DNA of 31,938 nt, from NCBI GenBank assembly GCA_964545135.1, contig CAZJEY010000001.1, positions 1 to 31,938 on the forward strand, read 5' to 3'. Within the stretch, counting starts at the first letter, position 1. Each line of letters begins with the position of its first letter. The notes beneath the pieces were generated by a model, which worked only from the letters and a program-made list of their open reading frames with translations, did not search any database and was not told the DNA's origin. The stretch is from an uncultured Mycoplasma sp. (GTDB lineage: Bacteria; Bacillota_I; Bacilli_A; RF39; UBA660). A program made the translations under genes and the position numbers. Positions 5,679 through 17,319 of the stretch are shown piece after piece.

Positions 5679-5707
5679 ATTATATTAAATTTCATTAATA
5701 TATTCAA
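5679..5707 (-). promoter_or_regulatory. SigmaA promoter of the T-box/leuS operon
   Basis: TTGAAT (5702-5707), 17 bp, TATAAT (5679-5684), immediately upstream of stem I. Confidence 0.75.
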
Positions 5708-8099
5708 GAAGTTTTAAAAACATTTTAATGAATAATTCATTTAAGCCTTTTTTCTTTAGTTTCCTAATTTCAATTCTCTTTTTCTTAACATCTAAATTAC
5801 TAAAGATAATATCAGCAATTTTTTCTTTTAAAATTGTTTCAATGTCTAAATCATTAATGATAGAATTAATATCCTCATTTAAAATTCTAACAGCGTCAAT
5901 TTCGATATCTTTACCACGACAATTTAAGGTTAATGTACTACTTGGAGAAATATCTTCAACATAAACAATTAAATCGTTATCTATAAGTTTAGTTTCAAAG
6001 TGATCTATTGGTATATTATTTATTGCAATTTCAATTTTTTCTGGCATTCTAGTATTTTTAAATCTTATTTGATAATTTCTTTTTTCCGGAACTATGCCTG
6101 TTTTTCCCTCTTTGGGTGAAATAATTACGGTATAATCATTAGCCATATATTTAAATTCAATATTTGTCTTTAGATAATAACCCTCTTTATAAAGAGTGGT
6201 AACACCATCATCTTCATATAGTTCATAAGTATTACTTTTACCAGGGAAAATATGAAATTCTAAATCCCGAGGACTACTAGTGTCATTTAAATTTTCATTT
6301 AAAATTGCTAGAGGAATAATACTTCCTGCTTTAGCAAACACAGGATAATCCTCAGTATTGTAAAATGTTACATATCTTTTACCACCTATAAATTTTTTCC
6401 CTGTTCTAAAATCATACCAAATTCCTTTAGGTAAGAATATTCTTTCAACAGAACGATTCATTATATTATCTTTTTTCTTAGTAATTGGTTTTACTAATAG
6501 TTCTGTACCAAAAAAATATTCATCTTTATATAATGGTTCATCATAAATTTCTGGAGCAAGATAATAAAGAGGTTGAATAATAGGTATTCCGGTTTCATGA
6601 TAAATAGCTGCTAAAGTATACAAATAAGGTATTAATTTTTGTCTTAAATTACAATAATCCTTAACAATAGTATAAGTAAGCATATCCCATTTCCATGGTT
6701 CTCTTTTATAAAAAGCACCTCTTTTAGCACTAAATCTAAATATTGGACTGAAAGTTAAGGCTTCTACGTACCTAATATATAATTCACTATTTTCAATACC
6801 ATCTTTAAATCCACCAACATCATGACTCCACCAAGAAAGCCCAATATTGGCTGAAGTTAAATCAAAAAATGGTAAATATTTTAAGGTATCCCAACTAACT
6901 TTAGTCTCGCCAGAGTAACATATCGGATAATTATGCGCAGCAATCCCAGCGTTTCTTGTTAAAAGAAGTGGCCTTTTTTCTTTAAATCTATTGAAATCTT
7001 GGTAATGATAATAATCCAAAATAGCTAATTCTTCTTTATTTTTAGAGTAATCTAACCAAAAGAAATCAACTCCTTCATCGTATAATGGAGAAATTAAATT
7101 CTTAAAATAACTTTTTATAAAATTTGGATCATATACATTTAACTTGATTGTTTCGCCTTTTTCAATTCCTAATTCATGAGCCATGATTGGATAGTTATTT
7201 TCATATGTAGATATTCCCTCAACTGGATCAATATTCACTCCAACTCTTACACCATGATCATGCATATATTTTGTAAAATCTTGTGGATTTTTAAATAATT
7301 CTTTATTAAAAGTAAAACCAGTTTTATGCTTATTATAATCATCTTTATCTTTTTTATGCCAAAATTCATTTAAGAGTAAAACCGATATTGGTATTTCATG
7401 TTTATTAAAAGATTTAATGAGATTTTTAGTATCTTCGTAAGAATATATCATATCTCTATTCCACCAAATACCTAAGGAATAACGCGGTATTAATGGAGGA
7501 AAACCAGTTAAAGAAAAGTAATCTTTTAAACAAAGACCAAAGTCTCTACGATACATAAATAAATATAAATCAATTTTATTGTTAGAATTCCTTTTTATAA
7601 AACCATCTTCACTTACTAATGGATTAAAACTATCATCTAAAGTTGCAAAACCATCAGTAGAATATAAACCATTATCTAATTTTACTTTATCATTATCTGT
7701 TTCAATACTAAAGGCACTTCCTTTATAATTTCTAGCTTCAGGATGACCTAAATACCATATTTTATCAGTATTTATAAGTTTTACTTTTAAATTAGAATCA
7801 GGCGCAAAATTAGGACCTTTAAAAGGTTTTTCTTTAGAATATTGCATTATAAAATATTTAGTAGTTATTACTAAGTATTTTTCATCTTGATTTACTTTAA
7901 AATTAGGAAGATTAAAATTTCTATTTTTTACTAAAAGGGTTAAATCATCATTGAATTCACCAGTTATATCATATTCTAATCTTATTAATCGCTCACTCAA
8001 AATAGTAATCCTGTAATTTACGCCTTTAAATATCGCTTTGGGATTACTTTTTCTTGGATCAATATTCATAGTTTCAACATTTCTTTGCAAACTAGCCAT
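5685..8099 (-). CDS. Glycoside hydrolase family 31 protein (TIM barrel plus C-terminal DUF5110-like domain) with a divergent active site
   Basis: PPLIPRYSLGIWWNR, DFFWLD, SWWSHDVGGF, LRQKLIPYLYT, YFFGTELLVKP, YELYEDDGVT. Start probably ATG 8099 after AAGGG. Confidence 0.85.
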   Translation of the reverse strand: MASLQRNVETMNIDPRKSNPKAIFKGVNYRITILSERLIRLEYDITGEFNDDLTLLVKNRNFNLPNFKVNQDEKYLVITTKYFIMQYSKEKPFKGPNFAPDSNLKVKLINTDKIWYLGHPEARNYKGSAFSIETDNDKVKLDNGLYSTDGFATLDDSFNPLVSEDGFIKRNSNNKIDLYLFMYRRDFGLCLKDYFSLTGFPPLIPRYSLGIWWNRDMIYSYEDTKNLIKSFNKHEIPISVLLLNEFWHKKDKDDYNKHKTGFTFNKELFKNPQDFTKYMHDHGVRVGVNIDPVEGISTYENNYPIMAHELGIEKGETIKLNVYDPNFIKSYFKNLISPLYDEGVDFFWLDYSKNKEELAILDYYHYQDFNRFKEKRPLLLTRNAGIAAHNYPICYSGETKVSWDTLKYLPFFDLTSANIGLSWWSHDVGGFKDGIENSELYIRYVEALTFSPIFRFSAKRGAFYKREPWKWDMLTYTIVKDYCNLRQKLIPYLYTLAAIYHETGIPIIQPLYYLAPEIYDEPLYKDEYFFGTELLVKPITKKKDNIMNRSVERIFLPKGIWYDFRTGKKFIGGKRYVTFYNTEDYPVFAKAGSIIPLAILNENLNDTSSPRDLEFHIFPGKSNTYELYEDDGVTTLYKEGYYLKTNIEFKYMANDYTVIISPKEGKTGIVPEKRNYQIRFKNTRMPEKIEIAINNIPIDHFETKLIDNDLIVYVEDISPSSTLTLNCRGKDIEIDAVRILNEDINSIINDLDIETILKEKIADIIFSNLDVKKKRIEIRKLKKKGLNELFIKMFLKLLEYINEI

Positions 8100-8199
8100 A
8101 AACATACCCTTTTCTACTATTAAAATAATATCATTTTTAATTCTATTTTTCAACTACTCTCTTTTAATAAAAAATAGCAATTTAATTATTAAAAGAATA

Positions 8200-10324: not shown

Positions 10325-12035
10325 TCTCTTCTTCTTCTAATTTTTTAAATGCGACTTTTCCTACTAAAGTGGTTGGCAATTTTTCCTTATATTCATATTC
10401 TTGTGGAATAGCATAGTAACTTATATTTTTATTACATAGTTCTTGTATCTCTTTTTTTATGTCTCCATTTAATTCAATGCCATCTTCAAGAACTATAAAA
10501 GCTTTAGCAACTTGTCCTTTGTAAGGATGGGGAATACCAATTACGGTACATGCAGATACTTTTGGATGACTCATTATAACGTTTTCAATATGCGATGGAT
10601 AAATATTATAACCACTGGAAATAATAATTCTTTTTAATCTTTGTTTAAAATAAATTAAACCATTTTTATCCATACAACCGACGTCACCTGTATGTAACCA
10701 AACTTTACCATCTTCATGAAATCTTAAAGCTTGATTTGTTTCAACTGGATCATTTAAATATTTTAACATTACTGTTGGTCCACTAATACAAATTTCGCCA
10801 TCTTTACCAATTGGCACTTCTTTATGAGTACCATTTTCTACAAGCTTGAAATACATATCGGGAAGAGGATAACCTATACTTCCTTCCTTATAACCATCTA
10901 TTGGGGATAGACATGTTGCTCCAGTTGCCTCTGTTAAACCATAACCTGGTCTTACTTTGGCTCTAGAACCATGTTCTCGTAAATAATTATCTATTTCTTT
11001 TTTTTGATTTTCAGATAGGAAATCTCCGCCACTTATAACAGCTTCTACACATTCGAGCTCATTTGTTTTTAATTTCTGCTTTAATAGCGCTTCAAATAGC
11101 GTTGGAACCCCAACAATAAAGTTTGGCTTATATCGTCTAATTAAGTCTCCAAATTCTTTAGCTTTAAATTGCGGTATTAAAGTACATTTCATCCCAAAAG
11201 TTAAAGGTGTATGAATACATACTGCTAAGCCAAAACCATGAAATATTGGCAAAATTGATAAAACACTATTCCCAGGCACTACTTCTTTTATCATTTCTTT
11301 AGCTTGATAAGCAAGAGCATTAAAATTTAAATTTGATAAAAGTATCGCTTTAGGTTTTCCAGTTGTTCCACCACTATATAAAATAACTGCTGGATCGTAA
11401 GCATTTCTTGGTTCATGACATACTCCTACAAAGTTTTTAGCACTATTAATAAAAGTAGTCCATAAAACGATGTCATCATCATCTTTAGGTATAGCAAATT
11501 TACGCATGTTTCCAATTTTGTATAATGTCTTTTTAACATATGGTAATGATTCACCTGCAGAAGCCACTAAAATTTTTTGCAACTTTGTATTTCTTTTAAT
11601 ATTAATTATTTTTTCTAAGGCAACATCAATTACTAAAATAAATTTCGCATCTGCTTGATTTATATAATTTTCAATTTCTTTTTCGCCTGACATAGGATGA
11701 ATCATTGTTGCTATAGCACCAATTAAGTTTGTAGCATAAACCATAATTACTCCTTCAGGAGTATTAGGCATACAAATACATACTTTATCATCCTTAGAAA
11801 CGCCATAATTTTTTAAAGCTTTAGCTGCATTTTCAATTTCTTTTACAAAATTTCGATATGTAACTTTATTACCAAAATATTCATAAGCATAATACTCAGG
11901 ATATTTTCTTGCTGTTTCCATTATTACATCAGAAATACTATTATTTGGATATTCTAAATTAGCTCTCGCATCTTGATAATTTTTTAACCATGGTCTTAAT
12001 TCGTTATCTTTTTTAATCATTTTTGATTTTTTCAT
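10296..12035 (-). CDS. Long-chain acyl-CoA synthetase-like AMP-binding enzyme
   Basis: YSGGTTGKPK, PIFHGFG, GYGLTE, WLHTGD, R.KRIIISSGYNIYP, LPTTLVGKV; GGAGG RBS. Confidence 0.9.
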   Translation of the reverse strand: MKKSKMIKKDNELRPWLKNYQDARANLEYPNNSISDVIMETARKYPEYYAYEYFGNKVTYRNFVKEIENAAKALKNYGVSKDDKVCICMPNTPEGVIMVYATNLIGAIATMIHPMSGEKEIENYINQADAKFILVIDVALEKIINIKRNTKLQKILVASAGESLPYVKKTLYKIGNMRKFAIPKDDDDIVLWTTFINSAKNFVGVCHEPRNAYDPAVILYSGGTTGKPKAILLSNLNFNALAYQAKEMIKEVVPGNSVLSILPIFHGFGLAVCIHTPLTFGMKCTLIPQFKAKEFGDLIRRYKPNFIVGVPTLFEALLKQKLKTNELECVEAVISGGDFLSENQKKEIDNYLREHGSRAKVRPGYGLTEATGATCLSPIDGYKEGSIGYPLPDMYFKLVENGTHKEVPIGKDGEICISGPTVMLKYLNDPVETNQALRFHEDGKVWLHTGDVGCMDKNGLIYFKQRLKRIIISSGYNIYPSHIENVIMSHPKVSACTVIGIPHPYKGQVAKAFIVLEDGIELNGDIKKEIQELCNKNISYYAIPQEYEYKEKLPTTLVGKVAFKKLEEEENEKRKKKEK

Positions 12036-12888
12036 TTACTCTTTCCTCCAATAATTTTGGATCATTCAAGATTTTTTCAATCAAATGGACAGATTTAATC
12101 AAGTAAAAACCATCAGCTATTCTTTCATCAATTGTAATTCCAAATTCACAGAAATATTTTTCAGTTTTCTTACCATTTTCATCAAAGACGTATTCTTTTT
12201 TTACCTCTCCCATTGTAACAAGACCAGAGCAAGTTCCAAAATCAGTTATATTATGATAAATTCCCCCAACTTTCAAAACGCCAAGATTAGATACAATTAT
12301 ACTACTATAATAAATATTATCTTTAACTAAACCAGCTGGTAAAATTCCTTTTTTATCACACCATTTAAATATTCCAACTATAGGAACCCTCAAAATATTT
12401 GGCAGTTTTCCTAGAATATCAATAGCGCTATTCGCTCCTTCTTTAACATTTTTCTTATTTCTAATTTCTTCAACTTTGTTTTTTATTTTATTTGAAACAT
12501 CCTTTAAAGTATCACTTTCTTTAATTGGAACAATTACCATAACTTCTTCTGAAGAATCAATAAATTCTACTTTAGCCACAAAAGAAATAATAATTTCATT
12601 ATGTTCATAAACATGTCTATTTGCCACAAATCTATTTAATAATGGTCGATTATAAATAGTTTTGGCAATAGCCATCACAAACATATGAAATAGTGTAATA
12701 TTATCATTTGGATTTTTCTTCTTATAATTTTCATAATATTCCATCAAATTGGTAACATCAATTTTTTGATTTACATATACTTCTCCCAAATTTCTGTTGG
12801 GTTTTAAATCAATCATAATTTGATTCATACTTTGAACATCTCGTACTCTTTTGGCATCTTTACGATCGCCGAATTTTCTTTTTTCCAT
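12013..12888 (-). CDS. Stand-alone 2-oxo-acid dehydrogenase E2-like (CAT-fold) acyltransferase catalytic domain, without a lipoyl domain
   Basis: KIDVTNL, AIAKTIYNRPLLN, IVSNLG, TMG, and TIDERIADG in place of the canonical DHRxxDG; only 291 aa. Confidence 0.8.
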   Translation of the reverse strand: MEKRKFGDRKDAKRVRDVQSMNQIMIDLKPNRNLGEVYVNQKIDVTNLMEYYENYKKKNPNDNITLFHMFVMAIAKTIYNRPLLNRFVANRHVYEHNEIIISFVAKVEFIDSSEEVMVIVPIKESDTLKDVSNKIKNKVEEIRNKKNVKEGANSAIDILGKLPNILRVPIVGIFKWCDKKGILPAGLVKDNIYYSSIIVSNLGVLKVGGIYHNITDFGTCSGLVTMGEVKKEYVFDENGKKTEKYFCEFGITIDERIADGFYLIKSVHLIEKILNDPKLLEERVNEKIKND

Positions 12889-13033: not shown

Positions 13034-13107
13034 GCAGGTGTAGTTTAATGGTAGAATAAGAGCCTTCCAAGCTCCTGACGTGAGTTCGATTCTCATCACC
13101 TGCTCCA
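13034..13107 (+). tRNA. tRNA-Gly(TCC) with encoded CCA
   Basis: Cloverleaf: acceptor GCAGGTG/CACCTGC, D-arm GTTT-AATGGTA-GAAT, anticodon loop CT-TCC-AA, T-arm GTGAG-TTCGATT-CTCAT, 3' T-CCA. Confidence 0.97.
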
Positions 13108-13118
13108 ATGAGGTTAAT

Positions 13119-13152
13119 ACTCGCACACTTATATAGTGATTGCGAGTTTTTC
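13119..13152 (+). terminator. Intrinsic terminator after tRNA-Gly
   Basis: actcgca-cact-tatat-agtg-at-tgcgagt followed by a T-run. Confidence 0.8.
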
Positions 13153-13188
13153 ATTTGTATAAAAAAGTTCGTATATTTAATATGATAG

Positions 13189-13617
13189 GTTCTTCTGCAG
13201 GAGCAATTATTGACAATAGCAATTCGCAAGAAAAGCAGAAAATAATATAAAAGAATTACTTATTTCTTTGTTAATGTTTATATTTATTACAAAGGCACTA
13301 ATACAACAATGCATGAATATTTAACATATTTAGTTGCTTTAGTTGCATTTTAGTCTATTAGCTCTGCAATATATGGAATAGTTAAATATAAAAGAAATCA
13401 TACTCCAATATTAAAAGCAGTAAAATTAACAAATTTTGCCAATGCTTTAACTTCAATAATGTTCACACAAATAGTATTATTAGATGCTTATGCGAATACA
13501 GAAATTTATAATTCAAATTTAATAAATGGTTTAACAAGTATGGGTATAGGAATAATAATTATTATATTAGGTTTGTATATGATAATTGGTATAAATAAAA
13601 TACGAAAGATAGATTAA
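13189..13617 (+). pseudogene. Degraded multi-pass membrane protein gene
   Basis: One frame reads ...KGTNTTMHEYLTYLVALVAF*SISSAIYGIVKYKRNHTPILKAVKLTNFANALTSIMFTQIVLL...IGIIIIILGLYMIIGINKIRKID* with in-frame stops at 13243-13245 (TAA) and 13351-13353 (TAG) and no usable 5' start; a terminator hairpin follows. Confidence 0.7.
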
Positions 13618-13761
13618 TTTTAAGTCTATCTTTTTTACAAATTACAATTTATACAATAAATCATATTGCGTAAATTAAGACAAATGGTGTGATAAATACA
13701 TCAAAGACAAATGAATTTGTTTATCAAAAATGTGCATTACCTTAAGTAATGGCTAAAATTG

Positions 13762-13801
13762 AAAATAACTTACAAACTTTATATAGCTTGTAAGTTATTT
13801 T
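13762..13801. terminator. Perfect 14-bp hairpin (bidirectional terminator-like)
   Basis: aaaataacttacaa / ttgtaagttatttt with a 12-nt loop. Confidence 0.6.
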
Positions 13802-14060
13802 TGGTATTTATTTCAAAGAAAAAGATATATTTACATTTGTCAGATGCTGATGGAATATTTGGATAAAATTATCTTCATCTAAAGTTAATCTTTCTTATAT
13901 CAATGAATATCTTTGTCTTTGTAGTTTTCTAACACTCTATTTAGAATTAATTGTTTCTTCTTGAGTCTAGGTTTACTATAAAACCTTAAAAATTGATATA
14001 CTCCCATTATTTTTTAATTAAAAACGTGAATCTTATTGTTGAATATTCTGCAATATATTC

Positions 14061-14083
14061 CAAAAATACGAAATCGTTCGTAC
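14061..14083 (-). terminator. Terminator after the small acidic ORF
   Basis: Minus strand GTACGAA-CGAT-TTCGTAT-TTTT directly at the stop codon. Confidence 0.7.
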
Positions 14084-14349
14084 TATAGTTTTTTGCCATT
14101 ACCCTTAATATTAATAAAATCTTCGATTTCATCCCTTGTAATTGCACCATTATAATCTGAAATACTTTGAGCTAAATCTAGAGCTTTATCAGATATGTAT
14201 GGAATTGTTTTTAATTCACGACTTATATCAATGCCTAATGCTAATTGTTCTTCTACAGTAAAAACTCTTATAAAGTTTTCACTTTCTATGCTTTCGACTA
14301 TTGCCCCAATAACAGCTTGCAAATCTTCTTCACTTATTCTATTTTCCAT
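14083..14349 (-). CDS. Small acidic helical hypothetical protein, candidate antitoxin or partner
   Basis: AGGGTGA RBS then ATG 14349 (88 aa), just downstream of the previous stop; D/E-rich. Confidence 0.7.
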   Translation of the reverse strand: MENRISEEDLQAVIGAIVESIESENFIRVFTVEEQLALGIDISRELKTIPYISDKALDLAQSISDYNGAITRDEIEDFINIKGNGKKL

Positions 14350-14363
14350 CTTTATCACCCTTA

Positions 14364-15833
14364 TTATATTTTTCTTCCATTTATAGTTGAAATTTCTGTA
14401 CTAATACCGACTGAATTAATATCAAACAAATCTCTCCATTTTTGTAGAGATCTTAACAACTCATTATTTTTTCCAACTCTAATATTTTCCGATTTTGCTG
14501 TAAAAATTGAATTAGGCACAATATTTCCATTATTATCATATATAAATTTTCTAAAAATAAAATCCTTTTTTTGTTTTTGCGTTTTTAATAAATCATTTAA
14601 TACAGAACTTGCTGTATTCCTAGAATTTAATCCAGCTTTATAATTTGTTGATGCTACTGTCATATAATTCCCATCTGAAAGCATAGCTAAACAAAAACAT
14701 GTTTTAAAGAAATCTCCTCGCATAAAAGAAGAAGTTTTAATGACTATTTTTTCCCATGGTAATATTTCATAAAATTTACCATTTTCTTCATACAAACCAC
14801 CTAAATTTATAATTCTATCTCTATTAACCATTATTGCCTCAAATACTTCTAATGCAGAAGCATTAGGTTTTAAAGGAACTAAATTACCATTCATATCAAC
14901 TGTTCCCAAAATTTTTCTTGCTGTTTCATTTGTTATAATATTAGCTGGTTGAATTCCAAGTAAATGAGGAATATTATATTTTGTTAAATAATACTTAAAA
15001 GAAAAAGTACTTCCATCGGATAAGCGTGCGGTGTTGTCAATAACTTTGGAACCATCAGTATATATTTTTCTGTAAGTATCCCAACACAATGATAGGTTTT
15101 CATATAAAATTTCCATTAATTTTTTCATAATCTTATGTTTATCAGAATCCGAACTAAAATTAACTCCTAAAGGAAAGTCTTGCAATTCGATATCTTTTAA
15201 TTCGCGTGTTTTACCAGAATGAACATCTACTATTTGTTTACTATTATGTGTATGTTTATCTATGTCTGTTGTTGCAGTAAACGTATATTGACCATTATTT
15301 TCTCTTAAATATAGGTTATTTCCTTTAACATCTTTTCTATAAAATCCCTCTTCTCTTTGAATGTTTTTTCCACTTGATGCCTCAATCAAATTAATTAAAG
15401 ATATATCATCAAAATAAAATCTTTTATTCAATCTATTACTTAAATATTCTAAATACTCAAATATTTCAATTTGAAAATTCCTTGGTATCCCATTACTTAA
15501 ACAGTATTTTTCTAATTGAAGCAATATTTTTTCTTGTTCGAAATGAGTTAATGCCATATCTATTGAACAATTAAATAAATCACTAGAAAAATTTATAATA
15601 AATTGCTTTTTTAAATTTTCATAACAATCAATAAATTCTTTATATGCCAACTTAATATATCTTAATTTTTCTAAATCATCTGCAAATATAGAACTCATAA
15701 TATTAAAATTATTATTAAATTCATCAAAATTACTCATTATTATTCTTTTTGAACTTTCAGATTGGATCTCATCTAAACCAATAACTTCTAAAAATATACT
15801 TTTTTTCATTTCATCTACTATATTTTCACTCAT
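14364..15833 (-). CDS. Hypothetical protein with a C-terminal PBECR4-like (barnase/EndoU/colicin/RelE-fold) nuclease domain
   Basis: GGTGG RBS then ATG 15833 and an extended -10 upstream; motifs W.TY..IY, YNIPHLLGI, WEKIVIK and IVPNSIF resemble PBECR4 (Y...F...NF.HLLG...K...P.S). The ORF is confident, the domain call is moderate. Confidence 0.55.
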   Translation of the reverse strand: MSENIVDEMKKSIFLEVIGLDEIQSESSKRIIMSNFDEFNNNFNIMSSIFADDLEKLRYIKLAYKEFIDCYENLKKQFIINFSSDLFNCSIDMALTHFEQEKILLQLEKYCLSNGIPRNFQIEIFEYLEYLSNRLNKRFYFDDISLINLIEASSGKNIQREEGFYRKDVKGNNLYLRENNGQYTFTATTDIDKHTHNSKQIVDVHSGKTRELKDIELQDFPLGVNFSSDSDKHKIMKKLMEILYENLSLCWDTYRKIYTDGSKVIDNTARLSDGSTFSFKYYLTKYNIPHLLGIQPANIITNETARKILGTVDMNGNLVPLKPNASALEVFEAIMVNRDRIINLGGLYEENGKFYEILPWEKIVIKTSSFMRGDFFKTCFCLAMLSDGNYMTVASTNYKAGLNSRNTASSVLNDLLKTQKQKKDFIFRKFIYDNNGNIVPNSIFTAKSENIRVGKNNELLRSLQKWRDLFDINSVGISTEISTINGRKI

Positions 15834-16170
15834 CAGTACCACCATCTTTTATATTTACTTTCTAATAAAATTATACCAAATTTCTAACAAAAAGTCTTAA
15901 ATATTATAAAAAATTCCTCTTATAAATATTTCATCAAAAAATAGGTATAATAGTTTTCTTTTTTATACGAAAAATATGGTATAAATACTATATCACTATA
16001 TCATGATTTTCAGTATTATTATAGCTAAATAACTTTTAACAAAACAGAAATAATTGCTCTAAATACTTGTAAAAAAAATTGAATTATTGTCTTCTCAACT
16101 AATATATTTTTTTATCTAAAAGCACTAATATAATAAATTAAAAGAAAAACATGCTTGCTTTGAAAACAAA

Positions 16171-17319
16171 TTAATTCTTTAGCTTTATATTTGTTCTTTT
16201 AAACATTAATATTTTACTAATTAAGAAATAGAATAACCCAAATATTAAAACTACTATAAAGCTTAAAATAATTGGTTTTATTGTTTCAAAATTAAATATT
16301 GATAATTTTACTATTTCATAGTTTCCATGAATAAACCAATAAGAAGGAAATAATTTAGAAAATTTGACTATATTGGGAGCTAAAAACTCTATTGGAACAA
16401 AGCAACCAGAAATAAAACTAAGTCCAAGTGCTAGCACATTTTGTACTCCAGATATAACATTTTGGTTCTTAATTAAACAACCTACCAAATAAGCTAAACT
16501 TGTAATAGTAAACGCAAATAGTAAAGAATTAATTATTAATAACAGTCCATTAATACTAAACATTAAATCTTTATAAAGAATAATACTAATTAAAACAAAT
16601 ATTAGCCAAATACTAATTGTTAAAACAAAATGTCCTAAAAATAATTGAGTTGCAAAACTTTTGGTGTTTAAACTGCTGACAGCGTTTCTCTTTTTTATTG
16701 TTTCTTTATTAAAAATACACATAATAGTACCAATTATAAATATAAATATTGATAAAAATGCATAATTTTCAAAACTATAATATACTGCTAACTTATCTAA
16801 TTCTGATTTATTAGTACTTGCAACCTTAACTTTTACTTCATTTTGAGTAATACTTTTAATATTTTCAATTATTTCACTTTCTGCCATACCAGATTTTCTA
16901 CATGTTTCAGCTATTTTAATATATCTATTAATTAAAAGTTCAGTATATTCGGACATATTTCGAGTAGATTTCTTAATACTTATGGAAATCTTCTTACCAT
17001 CTAAAAAATCTTTACCAAAATTATTTGGAATAATTAATAAAGTATCAATTTTATTTAAATATAGGGCATCTTGTATTGATTTATCATTATTATCTATCTC
17101 AATAATTTCTGCTTTATCACTGATATAATCAACAAAGTTTTTAGATAAATTTGATTCATCATAATTAATTATTGATATATTTGGATTTACATTTACATAA
17201 TCTTCTTTACTAGTATAATTTGTATTAATAACTGAAATGCCTATTGAAATAGCTGCAAACATAATTATTAGTCCTAAATGTTTTTTTACTATTTTAAAAT
17301 AATTCTTAAATACTATCAT
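16171..17319 (-). CDS. ABC-2 type exporter permease
   Basis: One N-terminal TM, a large extracytoplasmic loop and about 5 C-terminal TMs; FISGCFVP, FPSYW. Confidence 0.9.
   Translation of the reverse strand: MIVFKNYFKIVKKHLGLIIMFAAISIGISVINTNYTSKEDYVNVNPNISIINYDESNLSKNFVDYISDKAEIIEIDNNDKSIQDALYLNKIDTLLIIPNNFGKDFLDGKKISISIKKSTRNMSEYTELLINRYIKIAETCRKSGMAESEIIENIKSITQNEVKVKVASTNKSELDKLAVYYSFENYAFLSIFIFIIGTIMCIFNKETIKKRNAVSSLNTKSFATQLFLGHFVLTISIWLIFVLISIILYKDLMFSINGLLLIINSLLFAFTITSLAYLVGCLIKNQNVISGVQNVLALGLSFISGCFVPIEFLAPNIVKFSKLFPSYWFIHGNYEIVKLSIFNFETIKPIILSFIVVLIFGLFYFLISKILMFKRTNIKLKN

Follow-up and report, generated by a model that had tools for sequence, protein, structure and literature searches.

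The DNA analysed here is a stretch of 31,938 nucleotides from an uncultured Mycoplasma sp. of the RF39 lineage (positions 1 to 31,938 of contig CAZJEY010000001.1, assembly GCA_964545135.1), which is referred to below as the window. On its minus strand lies the gene of an acyltransferase-like protein, here called E2L, which is related to the catalytic core of E2, the acyltransferase subunit of the 2-oxo acid dehydrogenases, and to chloramphenicol acetyltransferase (CAT). The protein is distinguished by the replacement of the catalytic histidine of E2 by a glutamate (Glu255), and by a second histidine (His212), found in a loop that follows the counterpart of the oxyanion residue and conserved throughout the family. 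The gene overlaps that of an AMP-forming acyl-coenzyme A (acyl-CoA) synthetase, which in turn overlaps the gene of a PlsC-type acyltransferase (Table 1).

Table 1. Features of the E2L locus, with positions numbered from the first nucleotide of the window.
Feature	Position	Strand	Basis
E2L, stand-alone E2/CAT-fold acyltransferase-like protein (predicted fold), 291 aa	12013..12888	minus	PF00198, AlphaFold2, Foldseek, dN/dS
DERIADG, residues 254-260, counterpart of E2 DHRxxDG	12109..12129	minus	aligns to DHR of 3mae and 1b5s
SNLG, residues 200-203; Ser200 is the counterpart of the E2 oxyanion Ser/Thr	12280..12291	minus	aligns to T-N-I-G of 1b5s
GGIYHN loop, residues 208-213, with His212 (codon 12253-12255)	12250..12267	minus	alignment and family counts
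Family-specific helical insertion, ~40 residues (~145-191)	12316..12456	minus	gap in E2 alignment and model helices
AMP-forming acyl-CoA synthetase (ligase), 579 aa	10296..12035	minus	PF00501 (E=2.4e-75) and PF13193
PlsC-type (LPLAT) acyltransferase, 201 aa	9719..10324	minus	PF01553 (E=4.7e-28)

Motifs and predicted fold of E2L

The open reading frame of E2L is preceded, 7 nt upstream, by a ribosome-binding site (AAGAGG), and its product belongs to the PF00198 family, the only Pfam family matched (E=1.8e-14, with 54.2 bits against a cut-off of 23), the domain of which starts near residue 27. None of the NCBIfam models matched the protein, the Pfam search of its 291 residues returned neither a lipoyl domain nor a subunit-binding (E3-binding) domain, and no transmembrane segment was found in the E2L of the window. 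A preliminary description, made from the letters of the window, had already reported the lack of these two domains, the retention of SNLG with a YH histidine just after it, and a glutamate codon at 12124-12126 within TIDERIADG. All of these observations were borne out, down to the exact position of the codon, which reads ttc on the plus strand and GAA on the coding strand.

The histidine of the HHxxxDG or DHRxxDG motif is the signature of the whole superfamily of CAT, E2 and condensation domains. Both phmmer and the family profile placed the DER of E2L exactly on the DHR of the solved E2 cores 3mae and 1b5s, so that Glu255 stands where E2 has its catalytic histidine, a residue which PMC8421416 describes as conserved in every E2 sequence.

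The AlphaFold2 model of the monomer, which was built on 103 relatives, reached a predicted local distance difference test (pLDDT) score of 96 and a predicted template modelling (TM) score (pTM) of 0.92. When this model was compared with the PDB using Foldseek, the 50 best matches were all either E2 cores or the E2 paralogue E3BP (6h60), with a probability of 1.0 and target-normalised TM-scores of 0.65-0.80, and E2L, as modelled, has the E2/CAT alpha-beta fold.

E2L shares with the E2 catalytic cores (1b5s, Listeria 3mae and Escherichia coli E2p) not only this fold, but also the P-x-L-N motif, the S/T-N-L-G strand, the D-x-R pair and the xxDG turn. It differs from them in standing alone, in its catalytic position, in the invariant histidine of what is the ‘FTP’ loop in E2, in an insertion of some 40 residues, and in a hydrophilic C-terminal tail that runs past the end of the E2 alignment, a region which in E2 forms the contact between trimers. 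Its gene is accompanied by those of a fatty-acid ligase and PlsC. E2L lacks what defines a functional E2: a histidine in the DHR motif, lipoyl and subunit-binding domains, and the setting of a dehydrogenase complex. Its relatives are annotated in the public databases either as hypothetical or as ‘2-oxo acid dehydrogenase subunit E2’, a label which is misleading, and full-text searches of the literature found no description of the family.

Conservation of the family and the proposed active site

A word-indexed search with E2L returned 2901 relatives at E<=1e-3 (the 120 listed are 61-100% identical to the query), and an exhaustive search of cluster representatives at 50% identity gave 1366 matches at E<=1e-3, 141 of them at E<=1e-30. 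Conservation was assessed on an alignment of 103 full-length, diverse representatives with 24-55% identity (A1), and on a wider set of 118 sequences. All of the 120 close homologues listed read D-E-R-[IVL]-[AS]-D-G, and His212, Asn213 and Glu255 are present in every one of them. Only four columns of A1 are invariant, namely His212, Gly218, Asp254 and Gly260 (103/103 each), and His212 is found in 117 members of the wider set. Arg256 and Asn85 (102/103 each) and Asp259 (96/103) are nearly invariant. Position 255 of the same alignment is occupied by Glu in 87 sequences, Asp in 11, Asn in two, Ser in two and Gln in one, and never by His.

The SNLG strand is also well kept in A1 (N201 in 91 and G203 in 97 of the sequences), and position 200 is Ser or Thr in 77/103, the wider set having 46 Ser, 44 Thr and 27 Ala. 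A test of complementarity between the hydroxyl groups at positions 200 and 204 was not significant, with one sequence lacking both, as against one expected by chance. The consensus around the new histidine is Y-H-H-L-x-x-x-G-T, in which the second histidine (position 213) is found in 94 of the 103 sequences, being replaced by Asn in the clade of the window. Three residues of the insertion, P163, D178 and P184, are conserved in A1.

Comparison with two strains gave a ratio of nonsynonymous to synonymous substitution rates (dN/dS) of 0.065 for E2L, 0.049 for the ligase and 0.117 for PlsC, and the value of E2L therefore indicates strong purifying selection. Given the DER motif in all 120 listed of the 2901 homologues, the intact reading frame and this dN/dS, a private mutation or a decaying gene can be set aside as an explanation with hardly any reservation. 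The preliminary description had allowed that its proposal would fall if the YH histidine were surface-exposed and unconserved and close homologues mostly retained DHR. Neither proved to be so, since this histidine does not vary across the family and DHR has been retained in none of the homologues, and the loss of the catalytic histidine is real. An invariant His212 together with a carboxylate that is preferred at position 255, but replaceable, fits the pattern expected of an essential histidine with a helper carboxylate.

In the profile alignment, His212 falls on the Thr of the ‘FTP’ loop of Bacillus stearothermophilus E2p, 12 residues past the oxyanion Ser/Thr. The Ser/Thr of T-N-I-G sits 52 residues ahead of the DHR histidine, a spacing which agrees with the Ser551/His603 pair of E. 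coli E2p and the Ser558/His610 pair of Azotobacter E2p. In E2, the active-site channel runs between two subunits, one of which provides the serine and the entrance for the acceptor, and the other the histidine, which is accompanied by an Asp-Arg salt bridge that positions it and by a helper Asp or Asn (PMC8421416). As His212 is located in the loop after the serine, it would lie opposite the former histidine position of the next subunit, across the channel, a placement which we infer from the alignments.

On this basis, E2L may be an active acyltransferase that assembles into trimers of the E2/CAT type, in which the general base has been relocated, with the ancestral histidine of D-H-R giving way to the carboxylate of Glu255 and its role passing to His212, in the loop past the oxyanion serine. 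A His-carboxylate dyad would then be formed across the interface by His212 from one subunit and Glu255 from its neighbour, and the retained Asp254-Arg256 pair and xxDG turn would maintain the conformation of the old strand.

The acceptor side of the channel may have been altered as well. The E2 alignment jumps from residue 143/148 of E2L to residue 192 over only about 11 residues of E2, and the model places helices at residues 152-161, 164-179 and 185-189 of the resulting insertion. In E. coli E2p, the lipoyl domain is docked at the entrance of the channel by the corresponding loop, which spans residues 536-544 and lies a little ahead of Ser551 (PMC8421416). As the insertion takes the place of this docking loop, the acceptor side would have been remodelled, a change which is in keeping with a new acceptor and speaks against the lipoyl arm in this role.

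Some variation within the family was also recorded. The clade of the window has His92 (12613-12615), His96 (12601-12603) and Asn213 (12250-12252) at positions which are Arg, Arg and His in the wider family (R96 in 93/103). The change of Arg96 to His is largely confined to this clade, and four of the seven sequences with Asn213 also have it; these co-travelling changes suggest an altered recognition of an anionic group. Five members of 470-500 residues (P0142, P0228, P0242, P0258 and P0265) are extended at the N-terminus by 190-215 residues, which include several hydrophobic helices, and the multi-pass membrane extension of P0142 weakly matches the GtrA/DPMS transmembrane domain. Three genomes of one Bacilli family, f5 (G315, G370 and G390), have weaker matches to E2L (E 1e-54 to 1e-64) with one or two in-frame TGA codons, which could reflect either lineages that read TGA as Trp or decaying copies.

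Gene neighbourhood and lipid synthesis in the host order

The synthetase gene overlaps that of E2L by 23 nt, and its best NCBIfam matches are long-chain fatty-acid-CoA ligases, all of them under the cut-offs. The PlsC-type gene overlaps the synthetase gene by 29 nt, and its NHVGNYD (HX4D) and FPEGT motifs are intact. Neighbourhoods were compared in a sample of 80 genome loci from gut and rumen Bacilli (RF39-like) and Clostridia, in which the synthetase is adjacent to E2L in approximately 31 loci and PlsC in approximately 14. These two are the only recurrent neighbours, with no other gene family exceeding 8/80 loci. Within the genus, the gene order is either E2L-ligase-PlsC or E2L-PlsC, with PlsC directly adjoining E2L in several genomes. 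This operon context, which the preliminary description had not drawn on, points to lipid acylation.

One genome of the same genus (G019, contig C5, loci L015 and L016) contains two complete E2L-ligase-PlsC operons about 47 kb apart, the E2L copies of which are 60-62% identical to that of the window, and more distant homologues, at 28-30% identity, occur singly amid housekeeping genes. Upstream of the operon in the window, a strain-variable island of about 3.15 kb (13108-16262) starts exactly at the 3' end of a tRNA-Gly gene (13034-13107). It carries two orphan genes with no Pfam match (14083-15845), one of which encodes a 493-aa protein (14364-15845). In strain L112, the operon of which shows 93% identity to that of the window, the same flanks lie only about 370 bp apart. 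A GH31 glycosidase gene is also found near E2L, at 5685-8153.

The host genome (782 kb at 85% completeness, 25.7% G+C) encodes CdsA (contig C44), two CDP-alcohol phosphatidyltransferases (C4 and C48), three or four paralogues of the ligase and a second PlsC. A profile search of this genome, 85% of which is represented, found E2L and no canonical E2, with E1 and E3 not being searched for separately; canonical E2s of other genomes score about 1e-10 with the same profile. PlsY is absent from all 151 genomes of the host order, and PlsY, PlsX and FakB/DegV were all absent from the 26 genomes of the order sampled for these genes; the host genome has none of the three. Of the 15 other Bacilli families sampled, 15 have PlsY, 13 PlsX and 15 FakB/DegV.

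E2L itself is present in 41 of the 150 high-quality genomes of the host order (27%), in 25 of 86 genera, and a phylum-wide sample of 399 genomes contained it in 36. An order-wide replacement of PlsY by E2L was considered and rejected, given the complete absence of the former and the presence of the latter in only 27% of the genomes; with such a distribution, E2L is an accessory module rather than the general PlsY substitute of the order. Some genomes of the order have a single PF01553 gene, which suggests either lysolipid salvage or an acyl-CoA-dependent glycerol-3-phosphate acyltransferase (GPAT) of the PlsC family.

Acyl carrier protein (ACP; PF00550) was found neither in the host genome nor in three further E2L-positive genomes, G013, G014 (94% complete) and G018 (92% complete). 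In other members of the genus (for example, G008:C28:10379-14263 and G001:C53:296-4184), an accessory cluster places an ACP gene about 3 kb from two PF01553 genes of approximately 290 and 250 aa; this cluster was not found in the host genome.

Function of E2L and its alternatives

The fold predicted for E2L, the replacement of its motif, its family-wide conservation, the purifying selection and the gene linkage provide the basis for a functional reading, to which we assign about an even chance of being correct. According to this reading, E2L would be catalytically active, acylating lipids at the expense of acyl-CoA by means of a relocated general base, and would work with the ligase and PlsC to move scavenged fatty acids into membrane lipids. 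The neighbouring synthetase would make acyl-CoA, from which E2L would take the fatty acyl group, passing it to a membrane-lipid acceptor alongside the PlsC-type enzyme. Several observations weigh against this reading: about one member in four has Ala at the oxyanion position (27/118 in the wider set), position 255 carries no carboxylate in five of the 103 members of A1, roughly half of the 80 loci show no synthetase or PlsC gene in the vicinity of E2L, and the gene is accessory, being confined to 41 of the 150 high-quality genomes of the order.

The preliminary description had left three options for the chemistry, that is, a relocated histidine, a glutamate base, or a non-catalytic oligomer that binds acyl-CoA. 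The relocated histidine is favoured by the contrast between an invariant His212 and a variable position 255, which also bears on the second option. With Glu255 acting as general base in the ancestral place, His212 would be left only to bind the phosphate of CoA or of the acceptor, or to stabilise the oxyanion, and this would be in keeping with the Glu or Asp found at position 255 in 98 of the 103 sequences and with the full retention of the D-x-R-x-x-D-G scaffold that positions the E2 residue. Such a base is rather unlikely, however, in the face of five otherwise intact members with Asn, Ser or Gln at this position and a histidine that never varies, and we know of no carboxylate general base in the E2/CAT superfamily, which also counts against it. 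The non-catalytic option would make of E2L an E2-fold oligomer comparable to E3BP (protein X), serving either as an acyl-CoA binder or as a scaffold for the synthetase and PlsC. The loss of the canonical histidine and the variation of Ser200 across the family speak for it, as does the precedent of E3BP itself, which is among the fold matches. It is disfavoured, and unlikely in our view, because the invariant and near-invariant residues cluster in two active-site loops (H212 and G218; D254, R256, D259 and G260) and the gene is under the strong constraint described above; furthermore, E2L is often found without either of the partners that it would hold together.

On the other hand, E2L might be a thiol-to-thiol transacylase, transferring acyl groups from acyl-CoA to ACP by a thioester exchange of the E2 type and thereby supplying PlsC with acyl-ACP. 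E2 chemistry is just such an exchange with a carrier-bound thiol arm, and the PlsC enzymes of Firmicutes are generally acyl-ACP users, both of which lend it some plausibility. It nevertheless seems improbable in this clade, since ACP is undetectable in several E2L-positive genomes; in addition, the strong ACP matches of the genus lie in a different, accessory cluster, and the loop that would dock a carrier domain has been replaced by the insertion.

Among known systems, Aas of E. coli, in which an acyl-ACP synthetase is fused to a lysophospholipid acyltransferase, follows the same logic of an AMP-forming ligase joined to a PF01553 enzyme for the reuse of exogenous fatty acids, and the NCBIfam model PRK08633 (acyl-[ACP]-phospholipid O-acyltransferase) matches the ligase of the window at 1e-58, under its cut-off. 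Aas, however, has no E2-fold partner. The WS/DGAT and PapA5-type enzymes of the CAT superfamily use an acyl-CoA donor and a lipid hydroxyl acceptor, and they are two-lobed monomers with a canonical HHxxxDG; no sequence match between them and E2L was found. E3BP resembles E2L in the loss of the catalytic histidine, but it keeps the lipoyl and binding domains and has a structural role inside the E2 core, whereas E2L has invariant active-site loops and a replacement histidine. CAT, for its part, is well established as a stand-alone, single-domain trimer that uses acyl-CoA, and its active site lies between subunits, with Ser and His supplied by separate chains (see also PMC8421416). Unlike E2L, it retains HHxxxDG at the canonical strand, and no direct sequence match between the two was found.

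The absence of the fatty-acid kinase, PlsX and PlsY from the host order leaves room for a broader proposal, in which the ligase, E2L and PlsC could form a transferable cassette that by itself converts free fatty acid into phosphatidic acid. In this case, E2L would acylate glycerol-3-phosphate or a deacylated backbone, such as glycerophosphocholine, and PlsC would add the second chain. The proposal is rather doubtful; no homology of E2L to PlsY (PF02660) or to PlsB/PlsC (PF01553) was found, PF00198 being its only Pfam match, and any GPAT role of the protein would be by analogy. If true, it would provide a third kind of first-step lipid acyltransferase in bacteria, beside PlsB and PlsY, and the first enzyme of the CAT superfamily with a relocated general base.

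If the histidine has indeed been exchanged for a carboxylate and a new histidine has been installed in the facing loop, E2L would offer a large and conserved family in which the rebuilding of an active site across a subunit interface can be seen. The family is common in the uncultured Bacillota of the gut and rumen, and its linkage to a fatty-acid ligase recurs in lineages which rely on scavenged fatty acids.

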